A stretch of 64,000 nt of DNA from an uncultured Bacilli bacterium (lineage in GTDB: Bacteria > Bacillota_I > Bacilli_A > RF39 > UBA660): contig CAKPMC010000006.1 of NCBI GenBank assembly GCA_934167875.1, forward strand, positions 16,646-80,645. The letters are read 5' to 3'. Position numbers and translations under genes: made by a program. How positions within the stretch are numbered: position 1 is the stretch's first letter; every line of letters starts with the position of its first letter. Shown here piece after piece: positions 2,331-42,492 of the stretch. Under the pieces are notes generated by a model, which worked only from the letters and a program-made list of their open reading frames with translations, was not told where the DNA came from and ran no database searches.

Positions 2331-3216
2331 AATGTTTGGTAGAAGTATAAGAGATGCCTTCAAAAGTGTATTTAGAAATTTTTCTTTATCATTAGCCTCT
2401 ATTTCCTGTATTACAATTACTCTAATAGTAGTAGCTATTGCTTTATTGGCATCATTAAATGTAAATAATTTTACTAAAGAAATAAAAGAAGACATTACGA
2501 TAGTTGTTTTCGTAAATAGAGATGTTGAAGAAGAATCGTTAAATAGGATCAAAGCAAAATTAAATCAAATAGATAATATATCATCTATTGAGTATAAATC
2601 TAAAGCTGAATTAAGAAAAGAAATGCAAGCTTCATCAACAATGCTAGATGCAACAATGAAGAATTGGACTGAAGAAGAAAATCCATTAAAAGATACATTT
2701 CAAGTTAAAGTATCAGATATTGAAAAGATAAAGGAAACCGCATCAACAATAGAAAAGTTAGATGGAATAGATTCAGTAAATTACGGAGAAACAATGGTTA
2801 ATAGATTTTTATCAGCTTTTAGAATGATTCAAAAAGGAACTATAGTAGCTGTAATTATGTTAATAATAGTAACCGTTTTTCTAATTGTTAATACTATCAA
2901 ATTAACTATCTTTTCTAGAAAAAGAGAAATTTCAATTATGAGACTTGTAGGTGCAGGGAACTTTTCAATTAAAATGCCATTCGTTATTGAAGGAATGGTA
3001 CTAGGTATGATTGGTTCTATTATTCCTATTTTAATTGTTATATATGGCTATTTTGCCTTATATAAACACTTTGATGGTCAGTTATTCTCACCATTAATTA
3101 AATTAATATCTCCAGAACCATTTATATACATTGTATCTTTAGTTATATTAGTAATAGGTATAGTAGTAGGTATGATAGGAAGTTATAAAGCAGTTAGGAA
3201 GTACTTAAAAGTATGA
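2317..3216 (+). CDS. ftsX: cell division permease-like protein FtsX
   Basis: N-terminal TM helix, large extracellular loop, three C-terminal TM helices. Overlaps the ftsE stop. Confidence 0.8.
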   Translation: MKPFRMFGRSIRDAFKSVFRNFSLSLASISCITITLIVVAIALLASLNVNNFTKEIKEDITIVVFVNRDVEEESLNRIKAKLNQIDNISSIEYKSKAELRKEMQASSTMLDATMKNWTEEENPLKDTFQVKVSDIEKIKETASTIEKLDGIDSVNYGETMVNRFLSAFRMIQKGTIVAVIMLIIVTVFLIVNTIKLTIFSRKREISIMRLVGAGNFSIKMPFVIEGMVLGMIGSIIPILIVIYGYFALYKHFDGQLFSPLIKLISPEPFIYIVSLVILVIGIVVGMIGSYKAVRKYLKV

Positions 3217-4418
3217 TGAAAAAATTGTTTTCTAAGTTTCTACTACTATTAATAATTATTTCTATCATACTCCCTTCAACTGTTAATGCCGCCGATTTAA
3301 CTTATGGTCAAGTATTAGATGATTTGACCAATGCTAAAAAAGAATTAAATAAGAATAATCAATTAATTTCTGATAAAAATAATCAAATAGTTCAAAATAA
3401 CAGTACTATTAAAAATTTAAAATCAGAAGTAGAAAAAATGGGTGCTGAAGCAGTTGAACTTCAACAACAAATAGCAGATGCCAACACTGAAATAGATCAA
3501 AAAAAAGAACAAACTAAAAATTTAATTGTTTACTTACAAATGAGTCAAGGAAGTAATGTTTATTTAGATTATGTACTTGGTGGTGATTCTATAACTGATC
3601 TTGTTTATCGTTTATCTGTAGTAGAACAAATAACAGAATATAATGATAATATGGTTAAAGAATTAGAGGATTTAATAAGTAATAATGAAAAAAGAAAAGT
3701 TGAGTTAGCTAATAAACAAAAAGAATATGAAAACAAAATGACAACTTTAAATAATGAGGTTAATAAACTAACTAATTCAATAGCTAAGTTAGGTGACTTA
3801 TCACCAAGCTTGGAACAACAAGTAAAAGAAAAAGAAAAGTTAGTTAACTATTATAAATCTCAAGGATGTAAAAATCGTAGTGATGTAATAGGTAGAGATT
3901 GTGCTGTAACTAGTTCTAATGCTACTTTTTCAAGACCTATTAAAACAGGTTATGTGACTAGTTTTATTGGTTATAGATGGGGTAGTTTTCATAGAGGAAC
4001 TGATATAGGAAGCTCACTTGGAAGAAATACGCCATTATATTCGATTGGTAATGGTACTATTACTAGTATATGGAATGATGCGTATGGTGCAAAATGTATA
4101 AATGTTCAATATAGAACCTTAGATGGTAAATACTATACAGCTATTTATGCCCACCTAAGTAGATATGCATCAAATATATATGAAGGTATGCAAGTAAATT
4201 CTAATACTATACTTGGTTATATGGGTAATACAGGATATGCTTTTGGAGTACATCTTCACCTAGAAGTATGGCCATGTCGACTATATGGTGATAGTAATTG
4301 TAGCTCATGGAGTAAATATGTATCATTTGCTGAACGTAAATTTAGAGAAGGTTTTAAGGGAGCTGAAAGTGTAATATCATTCCCTAATAGAACATACCAA
4401 ACTTGGTATAATAAATAA
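3213..4418 (+). CDS. secreted coiled-coil M23 (LytM) peptidoglycan endopeptidase, PcsB/EnvC-like FtsEX partner
   Basis: Signal peptide, long coiled-coil region, C-terminal M23 motifs HRGTDIG ... HLHLEV. ATG overlaps the ftsX TGA stop. Confidence 0.75.
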   Translation: MMKKLFSKFLLLLIIISIILPSTVNAADLTYGQVLDDLTNAKKELNKNNQLISDKNNQIVQNNSTIKNLKSEVEKMGAEAVELQQQIADANTEIDQKKEQTKNLIVYLQMSQGSNVYLDYVLGGDSITDLVYRLSVVEQITEYNDNMVKELEDLISNNEKRKVELANKQKEYENKMTTLNNEVNKLTNSIAKLGDLSPSLEQQVKEKEKLVNYYKSQGCKNRSDVIGRDCAVTSSNATFSRPIKTGYVTSFIGYRWGSFHRGTDIGSSLGRNTPLYSIGNGTITSIWNDAYGAKCINVQYRTLDGKYYTAIYAHLSRYASNIYEGMQVNSNTILGYMGNTGYAFGVHLHLEVWPCRLYGDSNCSSWSKYVSFAERKFREGFKGAESVISFPNRTYQTWYNK

Positions 4419-24677: not shown

Positions 24678-26327
24678 ATGAATGAAATAAAAGTTAAAAT
24701 AAATAATACTACAATTGATGTTAATCGTGGTATTACTTTAGAAGAATTAGCTAAAAACTATCAAAATAATTTTAAATATGAAATAATTTTAGCTAAGGTA
24801 GATGGTATTTATAAAGAATTAACAGAGACAATTCATAAAGACTGTACTATTGAATTTTTTGATTTAACAGATCGTGGTGCTAATCAAGTTTATCTGAATG
24901 GATTAATTTACTTAACTGTATATGCCTATAAACTATTATTTGGTAGAACTAATGATATAAAAATAAATCATTCTCTTGATAAGGGATTATATATAGAAAC
25001 ATCATTAAAACTACAGGAAGAAGATTTAGTTAAACTAGAAGAAAAGATGAAAACATTAGTAAATAGTAATTTACCTATAACCAGATTAACTGTATCTAGA
25101 ATGGATGCTATTGACTATTTTAATAGTGTTAATGATCATGTTAAAGCTGAGATAATGAAATATATCACTTCTACTCATTTAACTTTATATAAATTGGAAA
25201 ATAATTATGATTACTTTTACAGTATGATGCCAACTTCATCCAAAGTTTTATCTCATTTTGAATTAACTTATTTAAATGAAGATGGCTTTGTCTTAAGATT
25301 CCCAACTATTTATATGAAAAATGGTATTAAACCATATGAACATAGAGAAAATATCTTTAATTTATTTAAAGAGTCAAGAAAGTGGGCTAAGAACTTAAAT
25401 TTAGAAAATGTCGTTGACTTAAATAGAAAAGTATCGTCAGGTAGTATTCTAGAATTAATTCAAATGGATGAGTTAATGAAAAATTATGAATTAATGGAAC
25501 TAGCCAAAAAAATAATATCTAATGAGAATGCTAAAATAGTATTATTAGCTGGACCATCATCAACTGGTAAAACCACAACCACTAATAAACTTACTTTATG
25601 TTTAAAAAGTTTAGGTAAAAATCCTAAAATGTTATCTATGGATGATTTTTTTGTAGATAGAAAAGATACTCCAGTAGATGAAAATGGTGAATTAGATTAT
25701 GAAAGGTTAGAAACAGTAGATTTAGCTTTATTTGAAAAAACTATAGAAAGCTTACTTTCTAACAATGAAACTATTTTACCAAGCTTTAATTTTGTTTTAG
25801 GCGAAAAAGAATTTAAAACTAAAATGAAAATGGATAAAGATGATATTCTGTTAATTGAAGGAATCCATGCCTTAAATCCTAAAGTGTTAGAACATATTCC
25901 AAAAGAAAAGAAAACAACAGTTTATTTGTCAGCACTAACAGAATTAAATATAGATAATCATACTCGTATTTCAACTACTGATAATAGATTACTACGTAGA
26001 ATAGTAAGAGATAATAGAACTAGAGGTAATAATGTTGAAGAAACTTTGAAAAGTTGGCCTAAAGTAAGAAAAGGTGAGGAAAATTATATTTTCCCATTCC
26101 AAGATGAAGCAGATTATACTTTTAACACAGCTATGATATATGAACTTGGTGTATTAAAAACATTTGTAGAGCCATTATTATATTCTGTAGAACCAACATC
26201 ACCATATTATAATGAAGCAATTCGTTTAATTAACTTTTTAAGATTATTTTTGCCAATCTCATCAGAAAGTATACCAAAAGATTCAATTATAAGAGAATTT
26301 ATCGGTGGCGGTTGTTTTAAAGTATAA
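24678..26327 (+). CDS. TGS-domain / uridine-kinase-family (PRK-like P-loop) nucleoside kinase fusion protein
   Basis: N-terminal TGS-like region and P-loop LLAGPSSTGKTTTTNKL within a Udk-like domain. Confidence 0.6.
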   Translation: MNEIKVKINNTTIDVNRGITLEELAKNYQNNFKYEIILAKVDGIYKELTETIHKDCTIEFFDLTDRGANQVYLNGLIYLTVYAYKLLFGRTNDIKINHSLDKGLYIETSLKLQEEDLVKLEEKMKTLVNSNLPITRLTVSRMDAIDYFNSVNDHVKAEIMKYITSTHLTLYKLENNYDYFYSMMPTSSKVLSHFELTYLNEDGFVLRFPTIYMKNGIKPYEHRENIFNLFKESRKWAKNLNLENVVDLNRKVSSGSILELIQMDELMKNYELMELAKKIISNENAKIVLLAGPSSTGKTTTTNKLTLCLKSLGKNPKMLSMDDFFVDRKDTPVDENGELDYERLETVDLALFEKTIESLLSNNETILPSFNFVLGEKEFKTKMKMDKDDILLIEGIHALNPKVLEHIPKEKKTTVYLSALTELNIDNHTRISTTDNRLLRRIVRDNRTRGNNVEETLKSWPKVRKGEENYIFPFQDEADYTFNTAMIYELGVLKTFVEPLLYSVEPTSPYYNEAIRLINFLRLFLPISSESIPKDSIIREFIGGGCFKV

Positions 26328-26365: not shown

Positions 26366-26758
26366 ATGAAAGTAAGATATTATATTGTTGAAAACTGTTA
26401 TGAGTTTATAGATACCTTGGAAAGAGAATTATGTCAAAAAGGTATTTCATATGTAAGAATAGATACAGAAATTCATTTTTTAGATCAAATTATTAGATTT
26501 TTAGACTTCGATCTTGATATGGATTTAATAGTAAAATTATATTTTTCTAAATTAGAGCTAAGATCAACTAATGACATTACTTTGTTTACTGATCTAAATC
26601 AAAATGATTATTTAGATTTTATACCACAAAATAATACTTATCAACAATATCATACAAAATTTACACACAATAATCATACTTATCAACAGCTAAATAAAAG
26701 AATGTTAAAAAATCAATCAAACAATGCCAATCAAAAATTAAAAAGGTATAAAAAATAA
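26366..26758 (+). CDS. hypothetical protein (130 aa)
   Basis: ORF with RBS AAAGGAG. Confidence 0.3.
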   Translation: MKVRYYIVENCYEFIDTLERELCQKGISYVRIDTEIHFLDQIIRFLDFDLDMDLIVKLYFSKLELRSTNDITLFTDLNQNDYLDFIPQNNTYQQYHTKFTHNNHTYQQLNKRMLKNQSNNANQKLKRYKK

Positions 26759-26781
26759 GATATCCACAATTTTGTGGATAT
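26759..26781 (+). terminator. perfect palindrome GATATCCACAATTTTGTGGATAT (copy 1)
   Basis: Immediately follows the stop at 26758. The identical palindrome recurs at 27787. Confidence 0.4.
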
Positions 26782-26799
26782 AAATATATATCAATTTAA

Positions 26800-26830
26800 T
26801 TGACAAAATCCCCCGGGGGGGGGGTAGAAT
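26800..26830 (+). promoter_or_regulatory. sigma-A-type promoter TTGACA-19-TAGAAT with a C5G10 homopolymer in the spacer
   Basis: TTGACA at 26800-26805, spacer AAATCCCCCGGGGGGGGGG (19 nt), TAGAAT at 26825-26830, RBS AAGGGAGG, ATG at 26859. Confidence 0.55.
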
Positions 26831-26858
26831 AAAAATATAAAATAAAAAGGGAGGAAAT

Positions 26859-27779
26859 ATGGAAAATAAACAAAAAAGTAAATTAGGTTTAGGAATATTA
26901 ATAGGAGTACTAATTGCAGTTATTATTTTACTTACGGGATATATTGTTTATGATAAAGTTATAGCCAAAGATAAAAATAATACTGAAGAAAAAAATCAGG
27001 ATAATATTACTCCAACGAATACTCCAGCTGAAATATCAAAAACAGAACCAGTTAATTTGAATGATGAAAAAATATCAGCCTTAATAAGTTATATAATGAA
27101 CGTTTATGATAATGAAACTGAAATGTATGGAACATATAAAGTAGAAACTGGTCGTAATAAAGTTGGGTTATTCTATCATAAAAATGATAAACAAATAATT
27201 GATAATATAGATTCTAATGTTAAATTAGAAATGTTATCATCAAAAATATACAATGAATATATGAAATCTCTAGCATCATCAGGAGTATATGAAAAAACAT
27301 TTACCAAAACAGAAATTGATAAATTATATCATGAGTTATTTGGATCACATGCAAGTAGCATAAAATATACTAGTAATACCTGTCCAACATTAAAAGAAGA
27401 AAATGACAAAGTACAAGTAATGAGTAGTTGTGGTAATGTTATTGGGCCAGGATTTCACTATTCTATTTTAACTCAATTCTATAAGGCTGAAAAAACCAAT
27501 GATGAATTATATTTATACCAATTAGTTGGTTATCCAAAATACGATGACGAAAATGATACTAATATTCCACATAATATTGATGATAGTTTCATCATATATA
27601 AAGATTATGATTTAACTACTAAAACATCAGGTACTAATACTAATTTAGGAACGGCTAATGAAAATGGTGGTTATAACTATGATTTAACTAAAATTAAAAG
27701 CGAATTAGATAGTTATAAATATACTTTAAAATTAGAAAATGGTAACTATTATTTCTATAGCGTCGAAAAGGAAAAGTAA
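26859..27779 (+). CDS. N-terminally membrane-anchored extracellular protein (306 aa)
   Basis: Basic N-terminus and TM helix LGLGILIGVLIAVIILLTGYIVY, then a Thr/Asn-rich linker and a globular region. Confidence 0.45.
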   Translation: MENKQKSKLGLGILIGVLIAVIILLTGYIVYDKVIAKDKNNTEEKNQDNITPTNTPAEISKTEPVNLNDEKISALISYIMNVYDNETEMYGTYKVETGRNKVGLFYHKNDKQIIDNIDSNVKLEMLSSKIYNEYMKSLASSGVYEKTFTKTEIDKLYHELFGSHASSIKYTSNTCPTLKEENDKVQVMSSCGNVIGPGFHYSILTQFYKAEKTNDELYLYQLVGYPKYDDENDTNIPHNIDDSFIIYKDYDLTTKTSGTNTNLGTANENGGYNYDLTKIKSELDSYKYTLKLENGNYYFYSVEKEK

Positions 27780-27786
27780 AATAAAA

Positions 27787-27816
27787 GATATCCACAATTT
27801 TGTGGATATCTTTTTT
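27787..27816. terminator. bidirectional rho-independent terminator: palindrome GATATCCACAATTTTGTGGATATC + TTTTTT (copy 2)
   Basis: Sits between convergent genes, A-run before and T-run after. Confidence 0.55.
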
Positions 27817-28567
27817 AAACAATATCATCAGCTAAGTTAACTACATTAGAAGTAATAATATAAGAATTATCCATGATATTATCACCTAAATAGTTTTTAA
27901 TTTCCTTATACTCATTCGAACTACTAATATCTCCCAGCATAATTGAATGATTTTTATTTACTTGATTATTAATATTGTTATAGCATTCTAATAATGAAGC
28001 ATCTTGTACAGAAATAGAATAAAAATCTAAATCTAATCCCCAAAAGTATTCTTCACTGTTTCTAATAACTGCTCCTGTACGAGCCTTATCAATTCTATCT
28101 TTAATATTTAAAACAATTTCCTTACATGGACTTTTCATATAAATATTATCATTAGGATAATTATTTATGATTTGAACAATTTTGTCTATAAAAATATTAT
28201 TGTTTTCCCCATGATTTTCAAGATTTAAAACTAATAATTTTGTGGTTGTTTTAAATAATTCTAATAACTCCTCTAATGTTATGATATTATGTTTTTTAAC
28301 TTTAGTACCAAGATTATATTTGCTAATATCAGCTAAAGTTAGATCAGAAATTTTATGTTTAGGATGTCCCATAAAACTATTATCATTATAAACAATAATA
28401 TTACCATCTTTAGTAAGATTTAAATTAACTTCAATTCCATCCACATAATCAGTATTGATAGCAAGCAAAAAAGCATCCATAGAATCACTAGGAGTATTTT
28501 TAGTATTAGTACCACTTCTAACTAATATTTTCATAATTCCACCTCTATTAAATATATGCAGAACCAA
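27815..28567 (-). CDS. glycerophosphodiester phosphodiesterase (GDPD)-fold protein with substituted catalytic motifs
   Basis: GDPD-like layout, but the canonical motifs are substituted: HRG is VRSG, ExD is EVN and HD is YND. Confidence 0.45.
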   Translation of the reverse strand: MVLHIFNRGGIMKILVRSGTNTKNTPSDSMDAFLLAINTDYVDGIEVNLNLTKDGNIIVYNDNSFMGHPKHKISDLTLADISKYNLGTKVKKHNIITLEELLELFKTTTKLLVLNLENHGENNNIFIDKIVQIINNYPNDNIYMKSPCKEIVLNIKDRIDKARTGAVIRNSEEYFWGLDLDFYSISVQDASLLECYNNINNQVNKNHSIMLGDISSSNEYKEIKNYLGDNIMDNSYIITSNVVNLADDIV

Positions 28568-28620: not shown

Positions 28621-28791
28621 ATGGAAAATAGTGAAAGTAAAGTTACTAATAAGAGTAATAATAAATTTTTAATAATAATAATAATCTTATCAGTAATAAT
28701 AGTTGTACTTGCTACTTTATTAATCTTAAATGTAATGAAAAAAGATAATAAAGATAATGGTATAGTAAATTCTACTGAAAAACTGATGTAA
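28621..28791 (+). CDS. small single-TM protein (56 aa), not in the ORF track
   Basis: RBS AGGAGAAAAT, MENSESKVTNKSNNKFLIIIIILSVIIVVLATLLILNVMKKDNKDNGIVNSTEKLM. Ends 15 nt before the serpin ATG. Confidence 0.3.
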   Translation: MENSESKVTNKSNNKFLIIIIILSVIIVVLATLLILNVMKKDNKDNGIVNSTEKLM

Positions 28792-28805
28792 CTTCGGCTT
28801 ATAGA

Positions 28806-30206
28806 ATGTCAAGTAATAATCTAGAGAACTTTGATTTATCTTTTCTAAAATTAGAAAATAATAACAGTAATATGATTTATAGTCCCATATCTATAAAATA
28901 TGCTCTAGAAATGTTAGCAGATGGTAGTAATGGTACTACTAAACAACAAATAAATGCAATAATAGGAGATTATAAAGCTAACAAATATTCAAATAGTTCT
29001 AATTTATCATTTGCTAATGCCTTATTTGTGAAAGATACATACAGAAATAGTATAAAAGAAGAATATACTTCTATGTTAACTACTAAGTATAATGCAGAAA
29101 TTATATATGATTCATTTACTAATCCCAATAATATAAATTCATGGGTAAATGAAAAAACACTTGGTTTAATCAACAATGCTGTTGATAGTGATTCTTTAAA
29201 AAATAATTTTATTTTGTTTAATGCCTTAGCTATTAATATGAACTGGAAATATAAATTACAGTCTGGCTCAACAGATCCTAATGTTCCAGATATATATTAT
29301 AATGTAAATTATTTACATGAAGATTATTCAGCAGGTATATCACCACTATTTGATGAAGAATCATATCATAGTCTTAAATTCAATAATAACAAGCAAGTTA
29401 AGTCAGTTGAGATTGGTGCTAGTATAAATAATTATGATATAGTTAATACTTTAGGAAGAGATAATATTAAGAAAACTATTACTGAAGAGTTAATTGAATA
29501 TCTAAATGGTGAAAATCCAATTTGGGAAGGTGACAAATCTGAAGAAAATATCAACAATTACGTTGAAGAATTTATTGATTCACTAGATTCAAACTATAAA
29601 GATGTCAAAGTATCTACAGATTTTGAGTTATATACTGATGACAATATTAAAGTTTTTGCTAAAGATTTAAAAGAATATGATGGTAAAAGCCTACAATATA
29701 TAGGTATAATGCCCAAAGAAGAGGAATTAAGTAGTTACATAAAAAATAGTACTTCAACAAGTATCAATAACTTAATAAATAATTTAAAAGAAATTAAATT
29801 AGAAAATTTCACCACTGGAAAAGTAACTAAAATAACTGGATATATTCCATTATTTAAATTTGATTATGAGTTAAACTTAACAGATGATTTAAAAAAATTA
29901 GGTGTAACTGATGTATTTGATGAATCCAAGGCAGATTTATCGAACTTAACTAATGATACAAATGCCTATATTTCTGAAGCTTCACATAAATCAACAATCG
30001 AATTTTCCAATGATGGTATAAAAGCTTCGGCTGTAACAGAAGTTGGTGGTTTGGGAGACGCTTCAGGTGGCTTTGAACATCTTTACGAAGTACCAGTAGA
30101 AATAATAGATATGACTTTTGATAAACCATATATGTTCTTAATAAGAGATAAATCAACAGGAGAAATTTGGTTTGCTGGTACAGTATACGAACCAATTAAT
30201 AAATAA
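28806..30206 (+). CDS. serpin (serine protease inhibitor) family protein
   Basis: N-terminal SPISIKYALEMLADGSNGTTKQQI, hinge/RCL ...GIKASAVTEVGGLGDASGG..., C-terminal KPYMFLIRDKSTGEIWFAGTVYEP serpin signature. Confidence 0.8.
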   Translation: MSSNNLENFDLSFLKLENNNSNMIYSPISIKYALEMLADGSNGTTKQQINAIIGDYKANKYSNSSNLSFANALFVKDTYRNSIKEEYTSMLTTKYNAEIIYDSFTNPNNINSWVNEKTLGLINNAVDSDSLKNNFILFNALAINMNWKYKLQSGSTDPNVPDIYYNVNYLHEDYSAGISPLFDEESYHSLKFNNNKQVKSVEIGASINNYDIVNTLGRDNIKKTITEELIEYLNGENPIWEGDKSEENINNYVEEFIDSLDSNYKDVKVSTDFELYTDDNIKVFAKDLKEYDGKSLQYIGIMPKEEELSSYIKNSTSTSINNLINNLKEIKLENFTTGKVTKITGYIPLFKFDYELNLTDDLKKLGVTDVFDESKADLSNLTNDTNAYISEASHKSTIEFSNDGIKASAVTEVGGLGDASGGFEHLYEVPVEIIDMTFDKPYMFLIRDKSTGEIWFAGTVYEPINK

Positions 30207-36643: not shown

Positions 36644-37939
36644 GTGATGGCTATGGATTTTGCTTTGTTTTTAAAGATGCATTATAATCAAATAGCAGAG
36701 TTAATTAACAACTATAGCTATATAAAAAATAAAGACGTTCAAAAAGAAATTGTAGATATTATTGAAAATGAAGTTTCTAAAGATAAGAATGTATCATTTA
36801 GTACAATAGAAAGCATAGTTTCAGAAAAATACTCTTGTCAATCAAACAAACAACCATCAGATGATAAAGATACTTTAATAGCACTTATTGATCAATTAAA
36901 TAATTATGATGCCGATTTAACTATAGAAGATTACATTCAATTAATTAATGATAATGCTGAGATAGAAGAATGGTTATCAGAATTAGTATCAAGTTTTGAA
37001 GTTAACGATAATGACGAATTAATCATTCCTGCAAATGAAAAGAATAAAAACATAGTAAAGATTTATTGTAGAGAAAATGGTATTTCAATCCAAGGAGAAG
37101 TATCAAATTATTCAGAAAATAATTATAATCAACATTTATATGAAATAAATGAAAGAGCTCTGTTAACAAAAGAAGAAGAATATGAGCTAGCAATAAGAAT
37201 TAAAAATGGCGATAAAGAGGCAAAAAATAAATTGATTGAATCTAATTTACGTTTAGTAAAATCAATAGCCAAAAGATATTTAAATAGAGGTATATCATTG
37301 GATGATTTAATTCAAGAAGGTAGTTTAGGTTTAATAACTGCAGCAGAAAAGTTTGATCCTGATAAAGGATATAGATTTTCAACATATGCAACTTGGTGGA
37401 TTCGTCAAGGAATTTTACGATCTATTTACAATAAAGGAAAAAGCATAAGATTACCAATCAAACTAGAACTAGAAATTAATGAATATTATAATATAAAATC
37501 AAAGTTAATTAAAGAATTGTTTCGTGAACCAACTGATGAGGAAGTAGCGCAAAGAATGAATTTGAGTATAGATAGAATAAAAGAGTTTAAAGTTTATGAT
37601 CGAAAAACAATTTCATTAGATTTAAAAGTTGGTAATGATGAAGATGACTGTTTAGGAGATTTTGTAGCCATAAATAATGGTATGACTACAGAAGATTATG
37701 TGTTAGAAGTATTATTACAAGAAGATGTACAAAAAGTACTATCAAAGTGTTTAACACCATTGGAAAAAGAAATTATAGAATTACGATTTGGAATTAATAG
37801 GAATAACCCTATGACGCAAAATGACATTGGTAAGAATTATAATGTCAGTCATCAGAGAATATGTCAAATAGAAACAAGAGCCATTCAGAAATTAAAAAGA
37901 TTATCAAGCACTAAAAAATTAATAGACTATTATCAGTAA
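36644..37939 (+). CDS. sigma-70 family sigma factor, SigA paralog with extended N-terminal domain
   Basis: Regions 2-4 present ([16 protein letters not shown]..., [11 protein letters not shown]-terminal HTH). The N-terminal ~190 aa is homologous to the N-terminus of the next gene. Confidence 0.7.
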
Positions 37940-42330: not shown

Positions 42331-42492
42331 TTGATTTCCTTATATATATTGTGTTATACTTATCCATGTGTGGCTGCTTAGATGTGTGAGGTTGCTGATA
42401 CGCCAGGTTAAGTTGTTAAAATTTTACTTAGCGAATTCAGGTTTTTACACGGAGCAAGTCTATACTAGATATAGGCGAAGGGAGGATTCGAA
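42331..42492 (+). promoter_or_regulatory. S10-operon promoter (TTGATT-18-TGtTATACT) and ~130-nt GC-enriched leader
   Basis: The leader 42361-42492 is conspicuously GC-rich and structured relative to its flanks. This is the position of the L4-responsive S10 leader in other bacteria. Confidence 0.4.

Follow-up and report, generated by a model that had tools for sequence, protein, structure and literature searches.

Does a run of guanines between the two hexamers of a promoter allow a gut bacterium to switch the expression of a surface protein? The question arises from a 64,000-nucleotide (nt) stretch of DNA from an uncultured Bacilli bacterium (GenBank assembly GCA_934167875.1, contig CAKPMC010000006.1, positions 16,646 to 80,645), herein called the window, in which ten consecutive guanines (G10) separate candidate −35 and −10 hexamers directly upstream of an open reading frame (ORF) of 306 amino acids (aa). 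An initial annotation, made from the letters alone, had proposed a phase-variable promoter spacer. Our analysis supports this reading, i.e., that G10 acts as a slippage-prone promoter-spacer switch (a contingency locus) of a membrane-anchored extracytoplasmic protein, which on the sequence evidence presented here we consider probable (roughly 0.75). The elements involved, all on the plus strand and in window coordinates, are as follows.

26800–26805, plus strand: −35 hexamer TTGACA, a perfect consensus (letters read directly)
26806–26824, plus strand: 19-nt promoter spacer, AAAT-C5-G10 (letters read directly)
26806–26809, plus strand: AAAT, the 5′ part of the spacer (letters read directly)
26810–26814, plus strand: C5 run, variable within the species (C5, C4, CCCCT, CCCAC, CACC) and unconserved in related species
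26815–26824, plus strand: G10 homopolymer, the proposed hypermutable element; G7 and G9–G12 in the same species, G6–G12 in relatives
26825–26830, plus strand: −10 hexamer TAGAAT, matching TATAAT at five of six positions; TA(G/T)AAT in all relatives
26849–26854, plus strand: strong Shine–Dalgarno sequence GGGAGG, 4 nt 5′ of the ATG at 26859
26859–27779, plus strand: 306-aa ORF, with a predicted N-terminal signal-anchor helix, linker and alpha+beta ectodomain

The initial annotation had placed TTGACA and TAGAAT 19 nt apart with C5G10 between them, which direct reading of the letters confirmed, and the end of the −10 hexamer is followed after 28 nt by the ATG of the 306-aa ORF, with an A-rich 18 nt and then GGGAGG in between. 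Judged from their letters, the two hexamers would form a functional promoter of the sigma-70 type, in whose spacer G10 would constitute a hypermutable simple-sequence repeat (SSR). In the proposed mechanism, slipped-strand mispairing during replication would add or remove guanines, each gain or loss would shift the spacing of the hexamers as well as their angular phasing, and the altered geometry would change the use of the promoter by the RNA polymerase holoenzyme. The outcome would be heritable and reversible variation of expression in the population, either on/off or graded.

The tract is exceptional against its own background. The window has a GC content of 27.8%, and its G runs of lengths one to five number 6947, 1511, 120, 17 and 1, respectively, each extra G cutting the count approximately 5- to 17-fold, after which comes a single G10. 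The expected number of G10 runs, by arithmetic from the base frequencies (G = 0.163), is ~1 × 10−3, in line with the initial annotation's view that a 10-G run is highly non-random at ~28% GC. G10 is the sole G run longer than five in the 64 kb, the sole C5 run adjoins it, and its length exceeds both the window background and the length deemed hypermutable (about 8–9 or more G/C). A search with Tandem Repeats Finder brought up no other notable SSR in the window, and A/T runs are never longer than eight. A promoter scan that allowed 16–18-nt spacers gave no site in the intergenic region 26782–26858, which leaves TTGACA/TAGAAT as the sole good candidate, out of register in the window allele. Four convincing intergenic TTGAC(A/T) promoters with a good −10 elsewhere in the window (14145, 14661, 39344 and 60734) have 16–17-nt spacers. 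We also considered whether the run could be a poly-G read or contig-end artefact, a possibility that the initial annotation had raised itself, and rejected it: in ENA, NCBI and Logan assemblies alike, and for many samples, the tract lies in the interior of a contig; 21 independent assemblies have it between the same flanks, and it is found in other species as well.

If G10 is prone to slippage, its length should differ between otherwise identical genomes. The exact 306-aa protein, or variants at least 90% identical to it, is encoded on dozens of metagenome contigs, from samples that include Hadza and Nepal human-gut assemblies; the window itself is identical to one of these contigs (ERZ28613878 scaffold_564), and the window allele and L001 are the same record. 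We compared 21 distinct promoter-spanning contigs of the same species, taken from metagenomes or metagenome-assembled genomes (MAGs) in ENA, NCBI and Logan, and found that the sequence between TTGACAAAAT and TAGAAT occurs in nine forms.

C5G10: 5 contigs, spacer 19 nt
C5G11: 6 contigs, spacer 20 nt
C4G11: 3 contigs, spacer 19 nt
C4G10: 2 contigs (L002, L160), spacer 18 nt
C4G9: 1 contig (L145), spacer 17 nt
CCCCT-G10: 1 contig, spacer 19 nt
CCCCT-G12: 1 contig, spacer 21 nt
CCCAC-G10: 1 contig, spacer 19 nt
CACC-G7: 1 contig (NCBI MAG, L135), spacer 15 nt

Counted by spacer length, the contigs are distributed as one at 15 nt, one at 17 nt, two at 18 nt, ten at 19 nt, six at 20 nt and one at 21 nt, while the 45 nt on each side of the tract are invariant. 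The length polymorphism occurs on identical backgrounds: the window allele (G10) and three G11 carriers (L003, L005 and L007) show 0 differences in 1,910 flanking positions. A linked single-nucleotide polymorphism (SNP) in the upstream gene and an A5/A6 frameshift in a serpin gene downstream separate two lineages, and G10 and G11 occur in each of them, a homoplasy that means the tract length has changed repeatedly. The strain-to-strain comparison that the initial annotation had suggested as a check thus came out in favour of a variable tract, and the 17- and 18-nt spacers that it had expected from a shorter run occur naturally, as C4G9 and C4G10. We infer that within clones the changes may be frequent and reversible. 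A scan of JGI metagenomes for further alleles of the exact promoter gave 0 matches.

Assemblies also tend to break at the tract. Thirteen of the 21 Logan contigs that cover the 5′ end of the gene start inside the G run (nine at G7, two at G4 and two at G10). Breaks of this kind were noted over L008, L009, L011, L138–L144, L148, L150, L151 and L165. In sample ERR7738959, a 31-mer consisting of C, G10 and 20 nt closes the left contig and the right contig starts with G7 and 24 nt, which in a k = 31 graph means two branch points at the tract, arising either from several tract variants among the reads or from recurrent read errors. Such tracts fragment short-read assemblies, and annotation will misjudge the expression state of the genes behind them.

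The tract is retained well beyond the species. The 306-aa protein has only 12 detectable homologues, and we compared the loci of those at 86%, 68% and 47% protein identity. The contig of the 86% homologue likewise starts in the G run. In a sister species, two or three tandem paralogues (312 and 317 aa; L012, L013) lie between the 130-aa gene and the GDPD gene that flank the locus in the window, and each is preceded by TTGACA-AAATTGAC(T)-G11-TAGAAT with a spacer of 19–20 nt. The genes at 68% and 47% identity, as well as unrelated genes with the same N-terminal anchor, carry TTGACAAA-N-G(6–12)-TA(G/T)AAT. Across diverged orthologues and paralogues (47–68% aa identity), the G run and both hexamers are retained. 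An alignment of 13 promoters of the clade showed conservation only of TTGACAAA, the G run, TA(G/T)AAT and a short block in the start region; TTGACAAA is invariant across the aligned orthologous and paralogous promoters, and the DNA upstream of the −35 hexamer is unalignable. C5 is absent outside the window species, with TGAC(T) or other sequence in its place, and is not a conserved part of the device. That diverged genes have kept a run of 9–12 G at this place in the promoter implies, on comparative grounds, selection for the run itself.

The anchor that these proteins have in common reads M-E-x-K-x-S-K-L-G-L-G-I-x-I-G-V-L-I ... F-I-(I/V)-Y-D-K, and in related low-GC gut genomes it is joined, as MENKQKSKLGLGILIGVLI...FI(I/V)YDK, to unrelated ectodomains (P0010–P0012; L152, L153, L132). 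A G-tract promoter (G6, G11) precedes some of the anchor-bearing genes but not others. For example, a 237-aa P0011-like protein (L132) stands behind a G11 promoter in the same MAG as L087 and the tandem paralogues, and a 225-aa protein (L152) has G6 and TATAAT, whilst P0010 has an ordinary TGnTATAAT promoter from which the G run is absent; the promoter module is thus optional and not obligatory. Two paralogous genes of the 460-aa type in one MAG (L086, L114) have G9 and G12. An IS3-family transposase pair lies directly upstream of the G11 promoter at L132.

The most serious competitor to a stochastic switch is a polymorphism between strains that is real but slow, with the G run serving as a rigid or A-like spacer that determines promoter strength or as a regulator site, so that expression would be fixed in each strain or regulated rather than stochastic. 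The dominant alleles do cluster at 19–20 nt and show no toggling around 17, the alleles with C-run substitutions track lineages, and the homopolymers of opc and the Treponema pallidum tpr genes act jointly with regulators (PMC7864442). We nevertheless regard this explanation as unlikely, as it has to accommodate G10 and G11 on the indistinguishable backgrounds described above and in both SNP lineages, as well as contigs that break at the tract; with lengths of G7–G12 in one species and G6–G12 in paralogues, neither a particular length nor a sequence-specific site is conserved, and the locus is not flanked by a regulator gene, the 130-aa protein upstream having no Pfam match. A still less probable explanation is that errors of sequencing or assembly create the length differences around a single true length, in what would then be an ordinary, weak and fixed promoter. 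Neither Illumina reads nor de Bruijn assemblies can be trusted once a G run reaches 10, the 13 of 21 Logan contigs that fail at the tract would be a natural consequence, and the pair C4G11 and C5G10 could fit a reverse-strand miscall after the homopolymer. Such a boundary miscall cannot yield C4G9 or C4G10, however, and neither the recurrence of consensus alleles from G7 to G12 across different assemblers and sources (ENA, NCBI and Logan) nor the upkeep of 9–12 G at one promoter position in diverged genes and species is expected from errors. That C5G10 is instead a minus-strand hairpin or terminator (C10G5, then ATTTTG), which was flagged on that strand in a terminator scan, or a dyad operator (CCCCCGGGGG) of the MerR type, whose promoters have 19–20-nt spacers, is very improbable, since at −5.2 to −5.5 kcal/mol (z about −0.5 to −0.6) the block folds no better than shuffled sequence, no gene on the minus strand has its end there, the C run and hence the dyad are absent in all related promoters, and no MerR-like gene lies nearby, the neighbouring proteins being without helix-turn-helix or MerR Pfam matches.

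The slippage-prone switch can be set beside several systems in which such tracts have been studied. The closest is porA of Neisseria meningitidis, where expression is graded according to whether 11, 10 or 9 G separate −35 and −10 (PMC3639595). As at our locus, a homopolymer of 9–11 G occupies the sigma-70 spacer of a surface-protein gene and its length differs between strains, yet porA encodes an outer-membrane porin of a Gram-negative pathogen, its switching and role in immune escape are experimental whereas ours are inferred, and its high state corresponds to a 17-nt spacer whereas our locus mostly has 19–20 nt. In T. pallidum, the poly-G of tp0126 separates −35 and −10, the optimal spacing being 17 nt, lengths of 7–11 G coexist within isolates, and several genes per genome have the design (PMC7864442). 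These tp0126 and tpr tracts resemble ours in being poly-G in the promoters of genes for surface or outer-membrane proteins, although in tprE/G/J/L the tract lies upstream of the start site and not strictly in the spacer, a CRP-like regulator co-acts, and the host is a spirochaete pathogen. The vlp genes of Mycoplasma hyorhinis reportedly (Yogev, Citti and Wise) have poly-A in the −35/−10 spacer and encode lipoproteins with repetitive C-termini. The Vlp system, which is cited in a review (PMC11868660), resembles the relatives of the window in being a gene family in which each member has its own conserved promoter and a conserved N-terminal leader in front of divergent ectodomains. It differs from the locus in its poly-A tract, in the lipobox Cys and coding repeats that our product lacks, in that the window species has a single copy at the locus, and in that our host is a walled Firmicute; the multigene trait is seen in sister genomes, with their two or three tandem G11 paralogues (L012, L013) and L132. 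In the AT-rich genomes of Campylobacter and Helicobacter, long G/C runs mark contingency loci (PMC6321876, PMC2823697), but those phasome tracts are mostly intragenic and work by on/off frameshift, whereas ours would act on transcription and is one in a 64-kb window. Finally, the T-tract "rheostat" of Helicobacter pylori sabA, a homopolymer near the promoter, tunes expression stepwise via DNA geometry (PMC4081817), although it lies upstream of the −35 hexamer and ours lies between the hexamers.

By analogy with such systems, expression of the 306-aa gene would depend on tract length. Based on the parallel with porA and tp0126 and on the 16–17-nt spacers of other promoters in the window, the 19-nt allele of the window is probably a low or off state, and the 17–18-nt alleles are likely on states. 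As most spacers are 19–20 nt, the usual state in the sampled populations is probably low or off.

Several points weigh against the switch and its assigned states. Both the promoter and its start site are predicted, every allele was taken from a short-read assembly, in which the length of a homopolymer is error-prone, and the contigs could break at the tract because it is hard to sequence and not because it is biologically heterogeneous. Several alleles carry substitutions in the C run, which are not a product of slippage alone. Furthermore, spacers of 19–20 nt are found in 16 of the 21 contigs and spacers of 17–18 nt in three only, so that either the gene would be mostly off, or the optimum is not 17 nt and the on/off assignment is wrong. 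A mostly-off gene would be plausible for an antigen or a phage receptor; alternatively, the geometry of poly(dG) may shift the optimum. Lastly, the hairpin upstream of the promoter has no T tail on the plus strand, hence read-through from upstream genes may give basal expression that is independent of the tract.

What would be switched is predicted, from topology alone, to be a surface or extracytoplasmic protein. The single N-terminal transmembrane (TM) anchor named in the initial annotation is supported by a hydrophobic stretch at about residues 10–31 and by an AlphaFold model (9-sequence alignment, pLDDT (predicted local distance difference test) 76.5) that places a TM helix at 9–38, followed by a disordered Asn/Lys/Thr linker at 35–58 and a two-lobed alpha+beta ectodomain. 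The leader contains no lipobox Cys, the protein's only two Cys both being in the ectodomain, and a signal-anchor (type II) topology is therefore predicted. Its description as Thr/Asn-rich holds only mildly (9.5% N and 8.5% T, where the long ORFs of the window have 7.2% and 5.5%), and Tyr is more distinctive (8.8% vs 4.9%). No tandem repeats were found in 26859–27779, and a leader-motif search found no further family members in the window.

The neighbourhood of the locus is organized as follows.

24678–26327: uridine-kinase-family gene, upstream of the promoter
26366–26758: 130-aa ORF without family (Pfam) matches, adjoining the promoter region upstream
26757–26781, plus strand: hairpin after the 130-aa gene, with stem ATATCCACA/TGTGGATAT (DNA fold −7.0 kcal/mol, z −3.5), T tail absent on the plus strand
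27783–27814: strong bidirectional terminator hairpin common to the 306-aa and GDPD-like genes (fold −12.4 kcal/mol, z −7.3)
27815–28567, minus strand: convergent GDPD-like gene

The first hairpin is a weak terminator on the plus strand because of the missing T tail. An exact 25-nt direct repeat, AAGATATCCACAATTTTGTGGATAT, occurs at 26757–26781 and 27785–27809, in both hairpins, and thus brackets the promoter and the 306-aa gene. From its sequence, this arrangement suggests that the promoter–gene cassette may have arisen by, or may be losable via, recombination between the terminator copies. In the sister species, the bracketed site holds the two to three tandem copies.

The GDPD-like gene is followed by serpin and GAPDH genes. 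In the serpin region (28621–30206), an A5 run at about 28776–28780 breaks the frame, leaving a TM-anchor ORF of 56 aa and a serpin ORF of 466 aa, while other strains have A6 and an intact membrane-anchored serpin of 523–528 aa; this A5/A6 state tracks lineage and shows no toggling. An (ATA)n repeat in the TM-coding part of the serpin is one ATA unit shorter in L004, and in L139 and L144 the serpin is split elsewhere (207 + 293 aa). Further afield, the window encodes a complete primary sigma factor (36644–37939, regions 1.2, 2, 3 and 4), a PcsB-like M23 peptidoglycan hydrolase (3213–4418), UvrA and UvrB. Rfam gave no match near the locus, its sole match in the window being an S10 leader of the Clostridia type (42371–42478). 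The matching MAG protein MCI5967468.1 is labelled "Tenericutes/Mycoplasmatota bacterium" at NCBI. From the peptidoglycan hydrolase, the primary sigma factor and the Clostridia-type leader, the organism evidently belongs to a walled low-GC Firmicute lineage with a standard sigma-70 apparatus and genetic code 11. A SASP gene is present in the relative L153.

Is the design confined to this clade? We scanned one genome per GTDB species for the pattern TTGACA-N5–13-G≥9-TAGAAT and found it in at least 120 stretches of species-representative genomes (L015–L134), against ~2–3 expected by chance (by arithmetic under uniform composition). The following observations concern the matches listed, which do not include the window's own species. 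They come mostly from low- to mid-GC MAGs of gut Clostridia, Lachnospiraceae, Bacilli and Treponema, and also from Streptococcus and Moraxella. One MAG (SIG415) has at least 10 loci, all before a gene family with a conserved 5′ untranslated region and the signal peptide MKKNYKWLIN..., and two others (Lapin-024 bin7 and BRZ_GA bin74) have at least four each. For the 92 sites with a Shine–Dalgarno-preceded ORF within 300 nt, 66 downstream ORFs (72%) start with an N-terminal hydrophobic segment, compared with 172 of 534 background ORFs (32%) at the same loci (Fisher p = 1.3 × 10−12), and many of the 66 are clear lipoprotein signals. Spacers among these matches range from 14 to 21 nt and are bimodal, with 28 sites at 16 nt, 56 at 18–19 nt and a dip to 10 at 17 nt. 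The dip may be an effect of gene families and of the G≥9 cut-off, or may reflect reference assemblies that mostly capture off states.

Taken tentatively, and as something to which we would give a little less than even odds, the locus may belong to a large and largely uncatalogued class of the form TTGACA–short A/T-rich–G9–16–TAGAAT, present in well over 100 species-level genomes and preferentially before secreted or surface proteins. As part of the same tentative proposal, in the window's clade the promoter and the anchor leader may behave as a module placed on different ectodomains, following a Vlp-like logic. A non-exhaustive literature search found no report of this design in gut Firmicutes; it did retrieve poly-G promoter switches in Neisseria, Treponema, Moraxella, Campylobacter and Helicobacter, and invertons in gut Bacteroidales.

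We view the locus as a further case, in a new organism, of a well-known switch type (the porA, tp0126 and vlp design), for which the evidence from natural variation is unusually good for an uncultured organism. Homopolymer switches in promoter spacers are textbook knowledge in a handful of pathogens, and the mechanism would be unsurprising to a specialist; what is noteworthy is the range of hosts, the way promoter and leader form a conserved module, and how widely the design occurs. With this locus, an uncultured Firmicute of the human gut offers a clean example, polymorphic in nature, of a design that is conserved in the clade and recurs widely in gut MAGs, and the sequence signature is simple enough to be used in mining metagenomes for contingency loci. 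The locus also marks a surface protein that is likely under fluctuating selection, be it from immunoglobulin A, phage or niche. A 2025 review (PMC11868660) leaves open whether multi-locus phase variation is confined to pathogens or whether this impression stems from database bias; if the tentative proposal of a large class is true, multi-locus SSR "phasomes" would be common in non-pathogenic gut commensals and not restricted to pathogens.
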